NCBI GenBank assembly: GCA_963813075.1
Contig: CAWEXU010000017.1
Span: forward strand, 86,114-150,113
Length of the DNA: 64,000 bases
Reading direction: 5' to 3'
From: Methanotrichaceae archaeon
Lineage (GTDB): Archaea; Halobacteriota; Methanosarcinia; Methanotrichales; Methanotrichaceae
Each line of letters opens with the position of its first letter. The stretch's first letter is position 1. Of this stretch, positions 979 to 48,994 are shown piece by piece. The notes below the pieces were generated by a model. It made no database searches and was not told the DNA's origin. It saw only the letters and a list, made by a program, of their open reading frames with translations. The translations under genes were made by a program, and so were the position numbers.

Positions 979-2028
979 TAGTCCTAGAAGCGGAATGGAA
1001 AAGGAGGCGATATGGCCTTGATTTATCTTCCAAATTCCCGAAGTCGTCTTTGCTGCTTCTTCAATGGTATCTCGCATAGTTCTTGAATTCCACCAAGCTA
1101 CAAAAAACTCAGGAAGAATTATTCTAATGTCTAAAGGGACTCGAATAAATAGGTCAGGAAAAATAATACCAGGTAGTGTTTTTTCTACTATGCCAGCACG
1201 ACCGACCAAATCCTTGCTACCGTTTCCACGCACAATGAAAACATCCTTGTCCTTAACTAAATATTGAACGATCTCATTTTCATTAATTGGTATCGGCTTT
1301 GAGTCCAAACAATTAATCTTGCCGTTTCTTAGCGCAGACAACCTAAGACACTGGACCTGTGATTCAGCACTTGTGGTTTTTACTGATAATCCGTTTTTTA
1401 AATTCTTTCTTCCTACAAGCTCATCAATAGTAATGATTGAATTCTTTTTATAATTAAAAATGGACCTTGCTATTGATACAGAAAACGCATTAGTTTCCAC
1501 CATCGCTCGCCTTCGCAACTCTCGTGCCTCCTCGATCCGGGCGGCCAGTTCCTGGATGCGGGCCACTATGCGGCGCTGCTCGTCCAGTGGTGGATGTGGA
1601 ATCACATAGCTAAGAACATTCTCTGGGCGAATAGCAGCATAATTGGTCGATCCTTGGGCAGTAACTTGATCCTGGAACATTTTTGTCCGGATAAAGTAAT
1701 CCAGGAATCGACGATCTAAATATTCTTCGTCAAGTGTGAAAATGAAGTAATGACTGCTTACGATAGCCCCTTCCAAATTTTCAGGGACAATTCCAAATCC
1801 TCCAACTTTGGCATCAATCTCAGCGACCAGAAATTCGCCAGCATGACATACTTGCTGTTTCTTGGTCTTAATTTGCGAACCGTCTATCGAATCACGCAAA
1901 ACGATCCCTTGAGCGTGAAGCTGCACACGACAGCGCTTATAAGTTGAAAGATCATCGATTTGGATGAATTCTTTTCTATATCGTATCATATCACCTAGAG
2001 GAACATTATCCCATCTCTTTCCAGACAT
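973..2028 (-). pseudogene. hsdS: Type I R-M specificity subunit HsdS, 3'-truncated by IS630
   Basis: TRD1, central conserved helix (IPHPPLDEQRRIVARI), TRD2. The frame runs into the IS end right after 'FSIPLL', so the distal conserved helix is missing. Confidence 0.88.
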
Positions 2029-2068
2029 TATTCAATCCTCTAAATGATATACCTGCATTTCCACTGGA

Positions 2069-2093
2069 ATTTCGCAGAAATTGTCTGCGAAAT
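2069..2093. promoter_or_regulatory. Perfect 10-bp inverted repeat between hsdM and hsdS
   Basis: ATTTCGCAGA-aattg-TCTGCGAAAT. Confidence 0.5.
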
Positions 2094-2102
2094 CTTCCTC
2101 GA

Positions 2103-3650
2103 TCATCTCTTCTCCGCCAGCAGCTCTTTTATCTCGCCCATGATCTGCATGATCCTCTCTTCCTTGGCCAGAATCGACTCCACCAGCTCCTCAGGCGGCA
2201 GTTGCTCCAGGTCCTTCTTCCCGTTCGGATTCTTGATATCCAGGTTGTAGTTATTCCCGGCAATCTCCTCCGCCGGCACTCTCCAGGCCTGCTCGCCCTC
2301 GTTCCTCGACCTTCCACCAGGCCAGGCAGTCGGCAAACTCCTCGAACTGCATGGGCTTGGTCTTGGTGTAGTTCTTGCGGCCTTCGGGCAGGGCCAGCTC
2401 GTAGTACCAGACCTCTTTGGTCGGCCCGGATCGGTCGAAGAAGAGCAGGTTGGTGGGAATATTGGTGTAAGGCGCAAAGACGCCATTGGGCAGGCGCACA
2501 ATCGTATGCAGGTTGAACTCCTTCAGCAGCTCCTCTTTGATCCTTGCTGCCACTCCGTCCCCGAAGAGCATTCCATTGGGCACGACCACGCCCGCGCGCC
2601 CGGGCGCGGGCGTGCGACGCAGCTTGCGCATGATGAGCTGCAAGAACAGAAGCGTGGTCTCAGAGGTCTGCTTGTCATCCGGGAAATTTCCCAGGATTCC
2701 GCGCTCCTCCTCGCCGCCGAAAGGTGGATTGGTCAGGATCACATCCACCCGCTGCTGCATCGCCTATCTCCCGCAGCGGGAAGCGCAGGCTGTTTTCGGA
2801 ATCGATCTGCGGATAGTCTATGCCGTGCAAGAGCAGGTTCATCTGGCAGAGCATGTAGGGCAGCGGCTTGGCCTCGCCGCCCTTTATGCTGTCCTTCTGC
2901 AGCACCTCAAAGTCCTCCACCGTCTTGCACTGCTCGTACAGGTGCTTGTAGGACTCGACCAGAAATCCGCCTGTGCCGCAGGCCGGGTCCAGGATGGTCT
3001 CGCCCAGCCTTGGATCCGTCACCGCCACCATGAAGCGGATGACCGGACGGGGGGTGTAAAACTCGCCCGAGTCGCCCGCAGCGTCCCTCATCTCTTTGAG
3101 CATCGACTCGTAAAGGTGGCTTAGGGTGTGGATCTCCTCAGAGGAGCTGAAGTGGATGGCGTTGATCTTGTTTATCATATCCCGCAGCAGGTAGCCGCTG
3201 ATCATGCGGTTGACTGTGCCCCGGAAGATGGTGGCAATCACATCCCGTCCGGTCGCCTCCGTTCGCGCTCTGCAGACTGCGCAGGTAGGCGAAGAGCCCC
3301 TGGCCCTCCTGCCCATCGGGCCGCACTGCTTTGTCCTGGTTGATGAAGGCGATGAGAGCGTCTCCGGTGATGCCGTCCTCCTTCGCCGCCCAGTCCCGCC
3401 AGCGGTAAGGGGCCTCGATGGCTGGACGGAACCTCTCGCCCTTTAAAATTGCCTCTTGCTCCCTGATCTGCTCCATGTCGTCTATGAACTTGAGGAACAT
3501 CACCCAGACCAGCATGGGAAGGCGGTCCAGGTCTCCGGAGAGGCCCTTGTCCTTGCGCATGATATCCCGGCAGGACTTGACGATGCTGCCTAACTGCTGG
3601 GCGGTGGTGAGCTGAGCTTCAGAGGCTTTAGGTTTGCGCGTTCGGGCCAT
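2103..3650 (-). CDS. hsdM: Type I R-M N6-adenine methyltransferase HsdM (split over four frames in this sequence)
   Basis: Consecutive ORF pieces give GEFYTPRPVI, DPACGTGGFL, ILTNPPFGG, and the C-terminal NYNLDIKNP. About three indels. Confidence 0.9.
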
Positions 3651-3669
3651 GTTATTACTACTCCTATCA

Positions 3670-6013
3670 TCAAGCGGCGTACAGCAGCACTTGTAGCTGA
3701 TCCACCGCTTCCTTTAACCTTTCCGCTCCGCCAAAGATGCCAATTATCTCCCCCACGTTTCCATGCTCGGAAATGGGCGGCACCTTCAGCACCTCAGGCA
3801 TCTCGAACTGCGCCGTTCCATGCTCTGAGTACTTCTCCAAAAGCTCCTCCAAAATGACTCTGGCCTCCGGTCCGTACTGCCCGAAGAAGTCCGGCTTCTT
3901 GCGCCGGAGCTGCTCAGCCCGCTGCCTGCGTGTTTGCAGGGGCGCATTGAAGGCCAAATGGCAGAGCAGGTCAAAGGAATCGGCCTCCGGCTGCCCTGCC
4001 TCGCGAGCCAGGTTGGCAAAGTCAATGCCCCGCTCCTCCAGAGCGGCGACTATCTCCGCTCTCTGCTCCAGGTCGGCCCATTTCGCTCGCAGCTCGGATG
4101 CCGTAGGGTAGAGCGTTCTCACCTTCTCTGCAGCATAATCTGTGAACTTGATCACCCGCAGCTGCTTTCCATCCGGGTCCAGCTCGGAGACGTAGTGCGT
4201 GGCGATCTCAAAGTGGCCGCCGTCCACATAGTACTTGCGTGGGGCGTCCTCATCCGGCAATTCTTGATCCTGGCCGTCGCCCTCACCCTTTCCGCAACCG
4301 CCTCCGCTTCGCTTATGGCCATCGGTCTCAATCTCGATACCAATGCGGATCTCCATCAAAAGCCGGATCGGCAAACATCTGCGTGGCGCTGCCGGTGTAG
4401 TCCAGGATGGAAAAGAAGAGCTTGCCATAGTCGTCCCGCACTCGCGTCCCGCGGCCTATGATCTGCTTGAACTCGGTCATGGAGCCGATCACCCTCGCCA
4501 GGACGATGTTCTTGCAGGTAGGCGCATCCACTCCCGTGGAGAGCAGCTTGGAGGTTGTAAGGATCACAGGTGTCTTCGTCTCCAGCTCCTGAAACCTGCT
4601 CAAATGGCCAATCCCAATCTGTCCCTCGTCCGCCGTCACCCGGCAGACGTAATCAGAATTCTGGGCCACCAGATCGGCATTCAGATTGTTCAGAGCCCGG
4701 CGCATCTCATCCGCATGCTCCTGGTCCACGCAAAAGACGATGGTCTTGGCAAAGCGGTCAGTATTCCTCATGAACTCTGCCAGGTGGCGGGCAATGGCCT
4801 GCGTTCGAGCCCGCAAGGCAACGACGCGCTCGAAATCCTTGGTCTGATACTCGCCATCAGGAATCTCGTAGCCGAAGCGGTCTTTCTCTCCCTGGCTGGG
4901 CCTCCAGCCTGCTGCGTCAACGTCTGTGACAATGCGATGCACCCGGTACGGAGCCAGAAATCCGTCTTCAATTCCCTGCCGCAGGCTGTAGGTGTAAATG
5001 GGATCGCCAAAGTAGGCATAAGTGTCCCGGTTATCATCCCGCAGCGGCGTCGCCGTCATGCCCAACTGATAGGCGGGCTGGAAATACTCCAGGATCTCCC
5101 TCCAGTTGCTCTCGTCTCTGGCGCTCCCCCGGTGGCACTCGTCTACTATTATCAGATCGAAGAAGTCTGGCGCATACTCCCGGAATAGGCCCGGACGCCG
5201 CTCGTCTTTCGCCAGGGACTGATAGATGGCAAAGTACATCTCCCGGCTCTTGATCGCATCTCCGTTCTCTATCTTCCAACGTGCGTCTCCAAAGGGCGTG
5301 AAAGTCTTATCCTTCGGATCGTCGATGAGTATGTTTCTGTCCGCCAAATACAGAATTCTGGGCTTGCGCGGCTCACCGCGGGAATTCCACTTCGACTCCC
5401 AGAGCTTCCAGCAAATCTGAAATGCCACAAAGGTCTTGCCAGTGCCTGTTGCCATGGTTAGGAGGATGCGTTTCTTTCCCTCTACTATAGCCTCAATTGA
5501 CTTATTGATTGCGATCTCTTGATAGTAGCGGGCGTCTTTTCCCTGGGAGCGATAGTAAGGAGCAAGAAGGCGTTCTTTCTTCTGCGCATCCACAATTTTA
5601 TGCGCATCACAGTAGCGTGACCACAGCTCGCCGGGCGATGGAAACTCTGAAAGTAATCGTTCTATTCCTGTGAAGTAGTCAAACTCAATTATCCCATCCC
5701 CATTGGTGGCATAGGCAAATTTGAGCCCTAAAATTTCCGCATACTCCTTGGCCTGTTGCAGCCCGTCTCCAGGGTTCCTGTAAATCGGTTTGGCTTCGAC
5801 AACAGCAATCTTAAAGTCCCGAGTGAAGCGAAGCAGGTAATCGGCACGCTTCTTCTTTCGGCGCTTGGGCTTATCTCCAATCATTACGATTCGCCCGTCT
5901 GTGAAATTCTGCTGCTCGGTGAAAGAATGAGGCTCATTATCCCAGCCCGAATGGATCAGCCTGGGTACTACATACTTTCTGCAGGTATCAGCTTCATTCA
6001 ACAGGGATTCCAC
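3670..6013 (-). CDS. hsdR: Type I R-M restriction subunit HsdR, EcoAI/EcoEI-like (one frameshift near 4340)
   Basis: NEADTCRKYV N-terminus, VVEAK nuclease motif, MATGTGKT, DECHRG, QIIGRGTR. An EcoEI-R-like C-terminal domain is in the 3670-4428 frame. Confidence 0.92.
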
Positions 6014-6308
6014 TTGTCTCTACGCCTCCAAGACACTACTCTGATATTTGAAAGATCTTGAGATTGGTGAAATCCTATGGTATTTCAATCTATCAGTATT
6101 TATAGTAAGAGCCTTAAAAACTTTTAAAATTGATTCAATATCCATCAGGGAGGTGGCCACGTAAAGCAAGGAGTGGCAGGCGGGCAAGGTGGTGGACGCG
6201 ACCAGACCTGTGGAGAATTAGAGCTATGTGCTCGTACTGCAGGCAAGCACACAGTTCAGCCTGGCCCGCCTGGGGAATATTAGCCTTTTTATATTCCAGA
6301 ACCATCAA

Positions 6309-6412
6309 CGGCTTGCCACGATTGTATCCAAGCCTCCCCGGCGTTGAGGGGACCAGGGCATTAGCGCGGGAGGCCAGCAGGCCGACTCGCGGCGCCCACT
6401 GAAAAGCAGCTC
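6309..6412 (+). repeat. Diverged copy (A3) of structured repeat A, inverted relative to A1/A2
   Basis: CGCGGGAGGCC-agca-GGCCGACTCGCGG-CGCCCA aligns with the reverse complement of 47529-47683 and 48841-48994. Confidence 0.8.
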
Positions 6413-6713
6413 TTATGAATAAAAATCAAGCTCTAAATTCATTTCCCCAGACGCGAAGCAACCGAATGATCTCTCCCAGTCGGTCAATAACCACACGTCA
6501 TCTGCTCCATCACCGCCTGGGCCATCACAAGCTGCAGCTATCGCTTTTTACGATCCGTGCATGGGGGCAGCAGTTGTGGCCTCCTACAGAAAGGAGTGGC
6601 ATGCAGGACTGGTAGTGGATGTGGCCTTGCTGTAGAGCAAAATGCGTCATCAGATTGCAGAGCAATCGATGCGCAAGGTTTAGCCCAGTTGGATAATATT
6701 ATTCATTCTATGA

Positions 6714-28105: not shown

Positions 28106-28328
28106 GTTCCTCGCTGTTTCTTGTGGGTAATAGAATGGTCGAGTCCTCTGTGAGTTCTCCGTGCGCTTTGTGCCTCTGTGGTAGTAGTTCGTACACAGTG
28201 GTTATAACCAGTGGCGAGCGACGTTCCACCACAGAGATACAAAGTTCACAAAGTACGCACAGAGCGCCTAACCAAGAACTGGGAAACCATAGAAACCTCT
28301 GGTTAGCCACAGGAAATAGCGAAGAGCC
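28106..28328. mobile_element. Fold-back/MITE-like element with nested inverted repeats
   Basis: Outer IR 28106-28130/28303-28327 (20/25), inner 37-nt IR 28146-28182/28228-28264, central perfect palindrome TGGTTATAACCA. Confidence 0.65.
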
Positions 28329-46040: not shown

Positions 46041-46397
46041 ATGAAAAGCGTTGAGCTATTCATAAAGGGAAAAAACGTACATAACATAGACTACAAATCA
46101 TTTCTCCTCCTAAAGGCATCGGAACAGGGCATACAGAAGATCAATGCATTCAACTCCTCAGAAAAAGCAGAGACGGTGGTTGTTCGCCTGCAGGGCGAGG
46201 ATGACATAGTAACCAAATATATCGATTTCCTTAAAACCAATTATCCAGATAAATTGGAGGTTGAAGGGATTATTGAACGAGAGTTCAATGGGCATGTAGT
46301 ATATGCCTCTGATTTCGCCCAGATTCTTCAGCTCGAGCTGATCACAAAAGCTGTATCTGCTATCAGCAATATCGAAAATAAGAAAGGTAGTATATAG
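46041..46397 (+). CDS. Divergent acylphosphatase-like protein
   Basis: IKGKNVHNIDYK aligns with the G.VQGVGFR loop but is degenerate. Confidence 0.6.
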   Translation: MKSVELFIKGKNVHNIDYKSFLLLKASEQGIQKINAFNSSEKAETVVVRLQGEDDIVTKYIDFLKTNYPDKLEVEGIIEREFNGHVVYASDFAQILQLELITKAVSAISNIENKKGSI

Positions 46398-46443
46398 TTT
46401 AAATTTTTTATTACTGAAGTATTATTATCCGGCTACGATTATT

Positions 46444-46574
46444 AACCACAGAGTCACAGAGTCCCAGAGACCTGTAATTTCTTCTCAATCCTGAAAACCC
46501 ACTGTGTAGTCCTGAAAACCCACCTAATTTTCCCCAGGATCGTCGTCCTCTGTGCGCTCTGTGGCTCTGTGGTT
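46444..46574. repeat. Palindromic CACAGAG-type repeat element
   Basis: Arms AACCACAGAGTCACAGAGTCCCAGAG and CTCTGTGCGCTCTGTGGCTCTGTGGTT; internal direct repeat TCCTGAAAACCCAC x2. Confidence 0.75.
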
Positions 46575-46675
46575 TTATTTAGGAAATTGCAGAGCTCATC
46601 CAGAAATGAATGGGTCTTGCAGATAAGATCATATACAAAGTCAAATACAAAAGATAGAGAGGGCAAGATCATTTG

Positions 46676-47257
46676 ATGAGGCTCACTGCGATTGTGTCCG
46701 GAAAGGTGCAGCAGGTCGGCTATAGAGCCAGGGTAATTGACATAGCCAATGGGTTTGGCATCAAGGGCATGATCGAGAACCTGTTGGATGGCCGGGTGAA
46801 GATAATCGCAGAGGGCGATCCTGAAAGGCTAAAATGGTTTGAGAGCGCCATAGATATTAAAAATACCCTGATCGATGTCTCATCCATAGAAAAAGAATAC
46901 TCTCCTGCCAGAAATGAATTTGATAATTTCGGTAAGCTGGTGGGCAAAGGCGAGACTGATGCCAGGTTGGACACGGCGGTAGGCTATCTGAAAGAGATCG
47001 CTTCTGGGATCAATAAAATGAATGATAACCTGGGAAGCAAGATGGACAAGATGCTCGAGAAGCAGGATCAGATGATCGAGAAGCAGGACCTGATGCTCGA
47101 TAAGCAGGATACTGTGATCGGCAAACAGGACGAACTTCTGTATGAGGTGAAGGATATAAACAGGAAGTTCGACAAGGTTCTTGAAAATGATATTATTCAG
47201 TTGAAGGATGATATGGCTGAGGTGAAAGCCGCTCTGAGGGCAAAAGGAATAATCTGA
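46676..47257 (+). CDS. Acylphosphatase domain fused to a C-terminal coiled coil
   Basis: GKVQQVGYR and ENLLDGRV; heptads MLEKQDQ/MIEKQDL/MLDKQDT/VIGKQDE. Confidence 0.85.
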   Translation: MRLTAIVSGKVQQVGYRARVIDIANGFGIKGMIENLLDGRVKIIAEGDPERLKWFESAIDIKNTLIDVSSIEKEYSPARNEFDNFGKLVGKGETDARLDTAVGYLKEIASGINKMNDNLGSKMDKMLEKQDQMIEKQDLMLDKQDTVIGKQDELLYEVKDINRKFDKVLENDIIQLKDDMAEVKAALRAKGII

Positions 47258-47337: not shown

Positions 47338-47528
47338 ATGTCTGAATACATTTTGCCATCAAGATCGAAAAGCTGGAAGAGGGTGTTTATCTAGCTACAA
47401 GCGACACTCTGCAGGGTCTGGTCGCCCAAGGGCGGACGATAGCAGAGACTATGGAAATAGCTCAAGATGTGGCCAGGAACCTTATTGAATCATACATCGA
47501 ACATGGTGATCCATTGCCGTGTGAATAG
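47338..47528 (+). pseudogene. HicB-like antitoxin (1-nt frameshift near the start), absent from the ORF track
   Basis: Manual translation IKIEKLEEGVYLATSDTLQGLVAQGRTIAETMEIAQDVARNLIESYIEHGDPLP. Confidence 0.7.
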
Positions 47529-47683
47529 GACTATTCTCATTTCAAAGCCCCAGAGCGCCTTTTTATGGGCGCACCGCGAGTCGGCCTTCGGCCTCCCGCG
47601 ATCGAGTCTGGTCCACTCCAGGCCGTGGCGGCCCCCCTGACCCCGCGTCCGCGGGGGACAAACTATGCTGCATAAGCCGCCAG
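47529..47683. repeat. Structured repeat A, copy 1
   Basis: 47572-47683 matches 48883-48994 at 111/112 nt; multiple hairpins. Confidence 0.92.
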
Positions 47684-47705
47684 GAAAAAGAGGAAGAGAA
47701 GAGTA

Positions 47706-47829
47706 TGGGCAAAATTTTCGTGAATATACGGAGATCCGAACACGATAATGCCGGTTGGTTGTCCCATGATATTCGGCAGCATGCGACAATCCCAGGTAGG
47801 CCAGGTCTCTCCTGCAATTGAGGCAGGAG
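47706..47829. repeat. Repeat B, copy 1
   Basis: Core CCGAACACGATAATGC...TTGTCCCATGATATTCGGCAGCATGCGACAATCCCAGG.AGGCCAGGTCTCTCCTGC recurs at 48745-48825. Confidence 0.9.
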
Positions 47830-47944
47830 GGGCGATAGACATTAAGAATGCCTCACGAACTGAATTTAAACCCACAATTTTATTAAGGATAATATTTATC
47901 GTATTCTACCAGGTGAACGCAGCTCAGGAAGTGATTTTGCAGAT

Positions 47945-48199
47945 ATGTCGGATGTTATATTTAATATCAGGGTGGATGACTTCTTAGCTAGGAGAGTAAA
48001 GGATATCATCCGGCAAGGCTGTTTTAGAGATGAAGATGCTTTCTTCAGAGAAGCCATTAAAGAGATGGTAAGAATGCATGAACTAAGTGAGCTGGACAAG
48101 AGAATGGATGCATTTGCCCGAAAGGCCGCTGCCGACCAGCTCATGAGCTTTTCGGATGCTGTTTTAGCTGCGAGGGCAGAGGAGGATAATGAGCTATAG
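47945..48199 (+). CDS. Putative ribbon-helix-helix antitoxin
   Basis: Alternating N-terminal strand FNIRV then helices (FFREAIKEMV); overlaps the downstream PIN gene. Confidence 0.75.
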   Translation: MSDVIFNIRVDDFLARRVKDIIRQGCFRDEDAFFREAIKEMVRMHELSELDKRMDAFARKAAADQLMSFSDAVLAARAEEDNEL

Positions 48200-48659
48200 A
48201 CCAAGAGTCTGCCTGGATACCTCTGTTGTCGTAAAATGGTTTAAGATCGAAGAGAATAGCGAGAGTGCCATTGAGCTTAAGAGGCTGGCTGAAACATCTA
48301 GAATAAAATTAGCAATTTCGGCAATCGTCCTTTCAGAAACCACAAGAGGGCTTAAAAAAGCAGGCTGCAGTGATGACAGGCTTTATCAAGTGGTGGATAT
48401 GCTGGACTCGTTCATTAGCCTTTGTGGGATGGATGTAATCCCGGTCGACTGGTTAATAATCAAGTCCGCTCAAAGGCTAGTGATAGAGCATAATTTGTTC
48501 TCCGCTGATGCGATTCATTCTGCAACCGCTATTTTGGCCGATTCGGACTTTTTCATTTCAGGTGATGAACACCATTTTAAAGAAAGCCTCAAATCTTACT
48601 TCACCGATAAAAATGTGTGCCTTTTAAAGTTATCCGAAATTGATAGAATTTCATTTTGA
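48189..48659 (+). CDS. vapC: PIN-domain (VapC-like) toxin
   Basis: VCLDTSVVVKW...E...ADAIHSATA...ISGD. Confidence 0.88.
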   Translation: MSYRPRVCLDTSVVVKWFKIEENSESAIELKRLAETSRIKLAISAIVLSETTRGLKKAGCSDDRLYQVVDMLDSFISLCGMDVIPVDWLIIKSAQRLVIEHNLFSADAIHSATAILADSDFFISGDEHHFKESLKSYFTDKNVCLLKLSEIDRISF

Positions 48660-48715
48660 GCGCAACATAACTATCATGCCCATCATGAAAAAATAAGGTT
48701 CTTCGCTGTCTTCTT

Positions 48716-48835
48716 TGGGCAAATTCCGTGCATTTAAGGAACTCCCGAACACGATAATGCTAATTGGCTTGTCCCATGATATTCGGCAGCATGCGACAAT
48801 CCCAGGAAGGCCAGGTCTCTCCTGCTGAGGCGTGA
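48716..48835. repeat. Repeat B, copy 2
   Basis: Direct repeat of 47706-47829. Confidence 0.9.
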
Positions 48836-48840
48836 GTGAT

Positions 48841-48994
48841 GACTATTCTCGTATCAAGCCCCGGAACGCCTTTTTATGGGTACACCGCGAGTCGGCCTTC
48901 GGCCTCCCGCGATCGAGTCTGGTCCACTCCAGGCCGTGGCGGCCCCCCTGACCCCGCGTCCGCGGGGGACAAACTATGCTACATAAGCCGCCAG
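48841..48994. repeat. Structured repeat A, copy 2
   Basis: Direct repeat of 47529-47683. Confidence 0.92.

Follow-up and report, generated by a model that had tools for sequence, protein, structure and literature searches.

The 64,000-nt stretch of Methanotrichaceae DNA analysed here (the window; contig CAWEXU010000017.1, positions 86,114 to 150,113) contains two direct copies of a hairpin-bearing repeat, A1 and A2, and a diverged inverted copy, A3. The initial annotation described a repeat of three copies with conserved stems and suggested either a non-coding RNA or a folded single-stranded DNA (ssDNA) site. The locus raises the question of what kind of element this is, on which strand it folds, and how it relates to the genes that it brackets. 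The repeat is not restricted to three copies: A1, A2 and A3 are three of 57 arms of an uncatalogued, dispersed and mosaic family of hairpin repeats in the host genome (G000). The explanation favoured here, to which we give about an even chance, is that the hairpin arms are an archaeal ssDNA recombination repeat resembling the bacterial REP/BIME repeats.

The repeat locus

A1 spans positions 47519 to 47683 and is read on the minus strand, the strand predicted to fold. It comprises a head that is T-rich on the plus strand (47555 to 47572), the region of an arm-to-arm crossover at another locus, followed by hairpin 1 (47575 to 47600, minus strand; CGCG stem, GA/GA internal loop, GGCC stem and C(GAA)G triloop), hairpin 2 (47613 to 47628, minus strand; a covarying 4-bp stem with a conserved 8-nt loop) and hairpin 3, the CCCCGCG/CGCGGGG stem of the tail (47641 to 47656, no strand assigned). 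The first and third of these hairpins had been annotated and are present. A2 (48832 to 48994, minus strand) is a direct repeat of A1 with hairpins at 48886-48911, 48924-48939 and 48952-48967. The two copies are 94.8% identical over 155 nt and, as annotated, share a 112-nt core with one mismatch (G/A at 47670). Their left ends had been placed at 47529 and 48841 and are moved to 47519, where likeness to a longer HicB gene of the related genome G005 stops, and to 48832, as derived from sequence joints at 48829-48832 in three of four metagenome runs. A3 (6264 to 6425, plus strand predicted to fold; hairpin 1 at 6365-6391, hairpin 2 at 6336-6351, motif M at 6264-6278) is indeed an inverted homologue and represents the commonest type in the host genome.

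The arms lie among gene remnants and cargo. A HicB-like antitoxin relic (47338 to 47528, plus strand), labelled by its likeness to the G005 orthologue and by its neighbours and without a Pfam match, is frameshifted near its start and ends about 20 residues short of that orthologue, where A1 begins. The cargo proper (47945 to 48659, plus strand) encodes an 84-aa putative antitoxin without a Pfam match and a PIN-domain toxin. It is bracketed by A1/A2 and by the repeats B1 (47706 to 47824, minus strand), a decayed fragment of a ydjM-like gene (tblastn E 2.7e-7) outside the hairpin family, and B2 (48716 to 48831, minus strand), which is 86% identical to B1. Contigs from three of the four metagenome runs join 46575-46577 to 48829-48832 with 20-24 other letters between them, suggesting that the stretch up to A2 is missing from some strains; these joints have low depth, a short side of 30 nt where given, and a likeness set to 88. 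The corresponding island between the ydjM and glycosyltransferase genes carries no arm in five relatives.

The left border of the stretch that some strains lack is a second, unrelated palindromic repeat, ACCACAGAG...CTCTGTGGT (46445 to 46573, no strand assigned), which also occurs at window positions 28174-28236 and is scattered through the orthologous island of relatives (L168, L169, L171, L173). GxxExxY (PF13366) genes are likewise found in that island in relatives, while the host genome has the repeat and no such gene; a pairing of the two is a possible lead. In G005 an IS200-type tnpA gene is interrupted by an insert of about 150 nt with a ACCACAGAG-type repeat (L210, about 1770-1925), which argues that this repeat is itself mobile. 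Other features of the window include acylphosphatase-like genes with low-complexity tails, in tandem copies in the island across the genus (window 46041-47257; L176, L177), and an exact repeat of at least 300 nt, probably an insertion sequence, at positions 1-962 and from 57557 onward, 57.6 kb apart.

Copies, types and distribution

One profile search of the host genome returned 51 matches and three profiles together gave the 57 arms, which fall at 43 sites. Thirty-two combine hairpin 1 of type X with a W tail, as in A3, and three, among them A1 and A2, combine X with a Y tail; two are X2 with Y, two are X2 with W, and 18 are shorter or degenerate. A covariance-model survey, in which 27 candidates per genome were scored, detected the repeats in 31 of the 74 other genomes from the host's family, spread over four genera, and in none of 76 genomes of four other families; 7 of 34 genomes of the genus had no match. 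Of 59 genomes of the genus, 24 carry the exact hairpin 1 motif (copies range from 0 to 36 across the 59), and the reversed motif, used as a control, was never found in the same 59 genomes. The named records with this motif bear the titles Methanothrix, Methanosaeta, Methanotrichaceae or uncultured Methanosarcinales. Bacterial matches were single. Viral contigs and plasmids yielded one chance match within a gene and one weak match, and the 18-kb second replicon of G005 has no arm.

The initial annotation recognised no known family, and Rfam 15 likewise gave no match at gathering score in the window; in 4 loci there was one unrelated weak match, away from the arm. No description of the family was found in the literature, a search whose scope stopped short of subscription papers, ISfinder and the supplements of PMC9668308. 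The copies are old, with the closest strong pair 96% identical and a median identity of 79%. As the arms are related by descent, counts of arms overstate the number of independent events.

Arm architecture

An arm is about 90-160 nt long and holds two or three hairpins. It opens with a T-rich head, after which come hairpin 1 (X or X2), a linker, hairpin 2 and finally a W, Y or Z tail. When 73 of the 92 X rows, chosen for showing the hairpin 1 pattern and two or more pairs in hairpin 2, are aligned, 98.4% of the cells are paired, compared to 45-53% when the partners are slid; given this selection the invariance of hairpin 1 is partly circular, and kinship inflates the counts. The internal loop of hairpin 1 is fixed in 202 of 209 arms. 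Hairpin 2, conserved as CCAC-TCCAGGCC-GTGG, covaries through all four Watson-Crick types: one pair is CG in 33 rows, GC in 31, AU in 6 and UA in 2, and a second is CG in 58, GC in 8, UA in 4 and UG in 2. Template-switch correction of palindromes can also yield Watson-Crick covariation. Hairpin 3 of the Y tail has 344 of 350 cells in Watson-Crick pairs over 50 arms.

The annotated structure thus survives in part. Its central idea of single-strand structure gains from the covariation of hairpin 2 and from the strand-specific loops described below, while the detailed fold was largely wrong. The stem CUGG(6)CCAG is not conserved (49.8% of cells paired, a value reached by 477 of 500 shuffles), the stem said to close a junction occurs in two of 59 Y-tail arms, namely A1 and A2, and the GGCTTG/CAAGCC stem of A3, taken for its counterpart, belongs to a different tail type. 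Furthermore, single copies fold little better than shuffled sequences (z from -2.33 to +0.75).

The arms mix hairpin 1 types and tails freely, which marks A1 and A2 as hybrids. The Z and Y arms of relatives pair up head to head at a distance of about 130 nt, and these doublets are also repeated in tandem. Such doublets are rare in the host genome (2 clear cases), where W arms instead build the dominant tandem units of 245 bp bounded by motif M; a TATA-like tract lies upstream of motif M in W-type units. Fragments of Mrr-type restriction genes recur along with motif M and an arm, which looks as though flanking DNA had been carried with them (L018, L213, L219). As annotated, no open reading frame is common to the copies. 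No sharp element end was seen, since the point at which upstream homology ends varies between 5 and 170 nt, with a wide shoulder at 15-55 nt, and homology breakpoints revealed no cut site.

The folding strand

The initial annotation took the strand opposite A1 and A2 to be the structured one and based this on G-U pairs. The choice of strand is supported by the loops: hairpin 1 has a C(GNA)G loop on this strand in 142 of 209 arms and on the plus strand in none. The argument from wobbles does not hold for the family, as non-Watson-Crick wobbles are equally frequent on both strands (7 versus 7 in hairpin 1, 4 versus 3 in hairpin 2 and 3 versus 3 in hairpin 3; the tallies of hairpin 1 X2 and of the W tail and the first tally of hairpin 3 were left out as out of register), and wobble counts were rejected as a means of choosing the strand. 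A C(UUCG)G RNA tetraloop on the plus strand was likewise dismissed, being out of register with the A1 stem and not the common variant.

Among perfect hairpin 1 triloops, 81 of 91 are GNA (GCA, GAA, GGA or GTA), and a GAAA loop occurs in one of 209. A second genus has a different inner stem with GCGAAGC in 10 of 12 matches and C(GCA)G in two, some of these being tandem or orthologous copies. According to the relevant part of PMC13037366, only GNA triplets form the DNA mini-hairpin, the RNA counterpart being far less stable, and C:G closure adds stability in the account given in PMC3201870; by these two papers the stability of GNA mini-hairpins is specific to DNA. Of the X arms, 141 of 195 have TAG or CAG directly 5' of hairpin 1 on the folded strand, and of the X2 arms 83 of 120 do; A1 and A2 have GAT at this position. 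A canonical GTAG, GTGG or CGTC tag 0-2 nt 5' of the hairpin is present in 15 of 195 arms on the folded strand and in none on the other. From the strand-specific C(GNA)G loops and the foot tag we infer that the arm around hairpin 1 is a folded ssDNA site read on one strand, a prediction made from sequence. As atypical hybrids without the tag, A1 and A2 themselves are probably passive direct repeats that bracket the antitoxin-PIN cassette.

Genomic clustering and cargo

In the host genome 28 of the 43 sites lie within 4 kb of another; 2000 random placements gave a mean of 4.8 and at most 15. Neighbouring arms point the same way in 28 of 32 pairs. The genes nearby include PIN, HicAB, ParE, MazF, TumE, HEPN, Mrr, GmrSD and cas genes as well as many ordinary ones; five of the nine PIN matches are within 3 kb of an arm, versus 6.7% of the genome. 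Across genomes the commonest neighbours are HicB-like (27), TPR (26) and HicA-like (9) genes, with labels assigned through members that were scanned. The arms have no fixed orientation to genes, apart from a mild excess between convergent genes (12 of 43 versus 147 of 950).

The cargo differs between genomes at the same junction. Five genomes have arms at the trpC-DUF460 junction: G068 holds five of them without any cargo, and the others carry cargo that differs. A HicAB cassette occurs at unrelated loci of G068 and G069, in both cases between arms, with 92% identity over 626 nt. In addition, the cargo of one array in G000 is found elsewhere in G005, where a T-tract join between two arms omits a TPR gene.

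Three of the five CRISPR arrays of the host genome with a visible trailer end in a W arm, and in these three the last repeat stops just before ATTGAAAC, which we take to be the Cas6 handle. Across genomes, a CRISPR repeat is found no more than 300 nt away from 21 of 452 arms (random stretches, 0.23% per strand); each of these arms is on the trailer side, with 17 oriented one way and 4 the other; A1 and A2 adjoin no CRISPR repeat. A trailer repeat that has lost its handle is ordinary, and we therefore read the CRISPR link as a preferred site with a carried flank, not as a CRISPR function. Collapsed arrays consisting of a leader, a single truncated CRISPR repeat and a W arm, without any spacer, were also observed (L016, L029, L218). 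At CRISPR trailers of three genomes, a gene for a family A DNA polymerase/3'-5' exonuclease adjoins the arm (L011, 7545-9420; L015, 18-1019; L215; L030).

The search for a mobilising enzyme

The initial annotation proposed to look for a linked recombinase, HUH transposase or reverse transcriptase at other copies. Such copies were found in numbers, and no linked enzyme was. No RAYT scored above the NF047646 cut-off in 105 genomes of the family, most of which are incomplete, and not a single Y1_Tnp match was obtained in G068, which is 98% complete and has 36 exact copies. Among 571 distinct proteins beside 527 arm matches, overlapping loci included, no mobilising enzyme recurs. The Y2_Tnp model was silent in all 105 genomes, and so was its control. 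No reverse transcriptase exceeded the cut-off in 5 genomes, and no arm was found at 14 DUF559 loci. Nearly all GIY-YIG matches are in UvrC-size frames, besides two or three shorter ones. An enzyme family that the tested models do not cover would be missed. A 1910-aa open frame of the host genome (contig C31, about 1578-5063; L297) has a weak reverse transcriptase match below the cut-off.

Several candidate parents were rejected, and none of the gene families examined follows the arms in its occurrence. Two arms lie near IS110 genes, but those elements sit within CRISPR arrays and have ends of their own; three IS110 copies are inserted directly after a CRISPR repeat end (L010, 7431-8918; L011, 5493-6980; G000 contig C7, 521-2005). 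Arms occur near 3 distinct Y1 loci among those fetched, but the IS200/IS605-type Y1 genes inspected carry different ends of their own and are absent from G068. A DUF1670 element lies once inside a doublet, again with its own ends, and arms are near 2 distinct loci of 30 fetched. This two-gene DUF1670 unit resembles an insertion element, with conserved ends in many genomes of the genus (L227, 5300-7230; L236-L261) and no enzyme class in Pfam. GxxExxY genes have arms at 2 of 12 loci and, as noted, are lacking in G000.

Another candidate would be a tyrosine recombinase acting in trans on attC-like folded-strand sites, with the clusters as integron-like cassette arrays that lack an integrase gene. 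We regard this as unlikely, even though the same-direction arms do flank toxin-antitoxin and restriction genes and an arm-arm crossover removed a TPR cassette from G005 relative to G000. In the portions of the integron literature used here, most attC bottom strands of mobile integrons end in a GAA loop as in A1 (PMC5027507), and archaeal cassette arrays without integrase exist (PMC9668308), in a paper whose main text names no Methanosarcin- or Methanotrich- taxa. However, no RYYYAAC...GTTRRRY pair spans any of the 57 arms, which are chains of short hairpins instead of one long hairpin, and inverted doublets are not attC-like. The cargo is mixed in its orientation to the arm (16 opposite and 7 same by heuristic gene calls), and tyrosine recombinase genes have no arm at the 14 loci tested, the one such gene in G000 lying far from any arm.

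Occupied, empty and conserved sites

Close species differ in the presence of arms. An arm unit of about 545 bp in G068 corresponds to a 4-bp gap at the same site in G063; the unit has an imperfect terminal direct repeat, which is absent from the empty site. At this one site compared in detail there is neither a terminal inverted repeat nor a target duplication, in accordance with the initial annotation. At a second site, G068 carries two arm sets with HicAB and G069 one doublet, and G063 has no arm.

One arm, by contrast, is retained in nine genomes between the same pair of convergent genes, a finding that speaks for a host role as strongly as for mobility. The core identity of its seven intact copies is 0.83-0.99 (mean of all nine, 0.83), versus 0.74 at four-fold sites of the adjacent gene. 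This conservation, the lack of an enzyme and of sharp ends, and the CCGAAGG sequence of the A1 loop, which in the account of PMC13037366 is the ssiA mini-hairpin near primase binding, would all suit a second alternative. In it the arms are host ssDNA signals, either primase/SSB-resistant mini-hairpins or sites of replication or repair restart, which no enzyme of their own mobilises and for which homologous recombination and gene conversion of the ordinary kind would be the only means of spreading and of shuffling cargo. We consider this, too, improbable, for recombination alone does not readily explain insertions at sites without a prior arm, the conserved foot tag or the 7 of 34 genus genomes without a match.

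Interpretation

For the REP/BIME-like repeat favoured here, one strand of the arm is predicted to fold as ssDNA, and a trans-acting enzyme, most likely of the HUH type, would cut and rejoin the folded arm, folding in vivo and protein recognition being presumed. Cargo would then move by strand transfer or by homologous recombination between arms, and the arms likely serve as a recombination site that shuffles toxin-antitoxin and CRISPR genes. This reading draws on the C(GNA)G loops, the YAG foot tag, the covariation of hairpin 2, the doublets, arrays and same-direction clusters, the filled and empty sites and the differing cargo. Counting against it are the lack of RAYT in the family and of Y1_Tnp in G068, the lack of a recurring enzyme and of sharp ends, the canonical tag in just 15 of 195 arms, the age of the copies and the site conserved in nine genomes.

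Of the two natures first proposed, the ssDNA site is favoured over the non-coding RNA, on account of GNA triloops with C:G closure, covariation confined to Watson-Crick pairs, the lack of a fixed orientation to genes, and polymorphism in both presence and cargo. That the arms are structured RNA, be it small RNAs, 3'-end or terminator structures or pre-crRNA trailers, is accordingly a poor prospect. In favour of RNA one could cite the T-tract ahead of the hairpins, the TATA-like tract before motif M, the convergent excess and the trailer-side position of the arms near CRISPR repeats; yet the loops are not GNRA tetraloops (the one GAAA in 209 aside), G-U pairs show no bias, the arms face either way to genes and CRISPR arrays (17 versus 4), and Rfam has no match. 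Six RNA runs share 0.07-0.16 of the region's words and carry no evidential weight, and a sigma-70 promoter/terminator scan, whose model does not cover archaeal signals, stayed at chance levels.

Least probable, and indeed very doubtful, is that the arms are inert relics of the ends of an extinct mobile element, with stems tidied by template switching and copies gathered in tolerant defence islands: old, degenerate and chimeric copies that fold little better than shuffles, and the missing enzyme, would be expected, but template switching does not choose the loop sequence of one strand, at one orthologous site the core has changed less than synonymous positions have, and filled and empty sites occur between close species.

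The REP/BIME-like reading can be carried a step further, to a tentative proposal that we would sooner doubt than accept. The host family may possess a cassette system of its own, an archaeal counterpart of integrons and BIMEs, in which a recombinase or nuclease of an undescribed class, neither IntI nor RAYT, would act at tagged ssDNA mini-hairpin sites and would capture, stack and relocate modules of toxin-antitoxin, restriction and CRISPR genes. Systems of the REP/BIME kind, with their HUH enzymes, have been described from bacteria. If the favoured reading is true, a family present in four methanogen genera marks the borders of defence cargo, points to an undescribed ssDNA-processing enzyme and offers a route for the turnover of defence genes in acetate-using methanogens. 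The 90-nt arm would be a ready bait for pull-down and cleavage assays.

Comparison with known systems

Several described systems share features with the arms, here compared from the parts of the cited papers that concern them. For the ends or miniatures of IS200/IS605 or IS91 elements, the Y1 elements inspected have other ends than these hairpins and no precise ends of the arms were seen; the IS200 subclass is the only one of the Y1 enzymes reported for Archaea in the relevant part of PMC6006769. Miniature elements of the terminal-inverted-repeat type do not agree with the one site compared, which lacks both hallmarks, and no Rfam 15 covariance model describes the repeat. The initiation signals of the phage G4 origin and ssiA (PMC13037366) likewise consist of clustered short hairpins with GCGAAGC or CCGAAGG mini-hairpins, whereas the arms occur in dozens of chromosomal copies and are missing from the second replicon of G005.

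The sites of integrons and of integrase-less cassette arrays (CALINs; PMC5027507, PMC9668308) resemble the arms in their strand-specific ssDNA hairpin, in a GAA-type loop and in same-direction sites around toxin-antitoxin and restriction genes. The arms, in contrast, are made of several short hairpins and lack R boxes and an AAC/GTT crossover pair. Their sites do lie in direct orientation, but the cassette genes are not uniformly oriented to the site, inverted doublets occur and no IntI-like gene adjoins. CGTC-tagged REP families without a linked transposase (PMC3733652) offer tagged palindromes, head-to-head dimers and conserved spacers; unlike these, the arms have a different tag, are longer, archaeal and multi-hairpin, and stand in cargo arrays.

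The closest likeness is to the REP/BIME repeats of Escherichia coli and the REPINs of Pseudomonas with their TnpA(REP)/RAYT enzymes (PMC3479197, PMC3116915, PMC6006769). Like these, the arms are many-copy, extragenic, imperfect hairpins with a fixed internal mismatch and a short 5'-foot tag ending in AG on one strand. They combine two arm types in inverted doublets and form tandem arrays of variable copy number, without terminal inverted repeats or target duplication. The arms differ in being archaeal, in their length and in having two or three hairpins, and their association with toxin-antitoxin cargo and with CRISPR trailers is strong. Their tag reads TAG or CAG, not the tetranucleotide GTAG that marks the foot of REP in PMC3479197, and no cognate TnpA(REP)/RAYT gene flanked by repeats was found in the 105 genomes. 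Because these last two features define REP, the arms are not filed as REP/BIME members, yet by this analysis it is REP/BIME that they appear to resemble most closely in the way they work.
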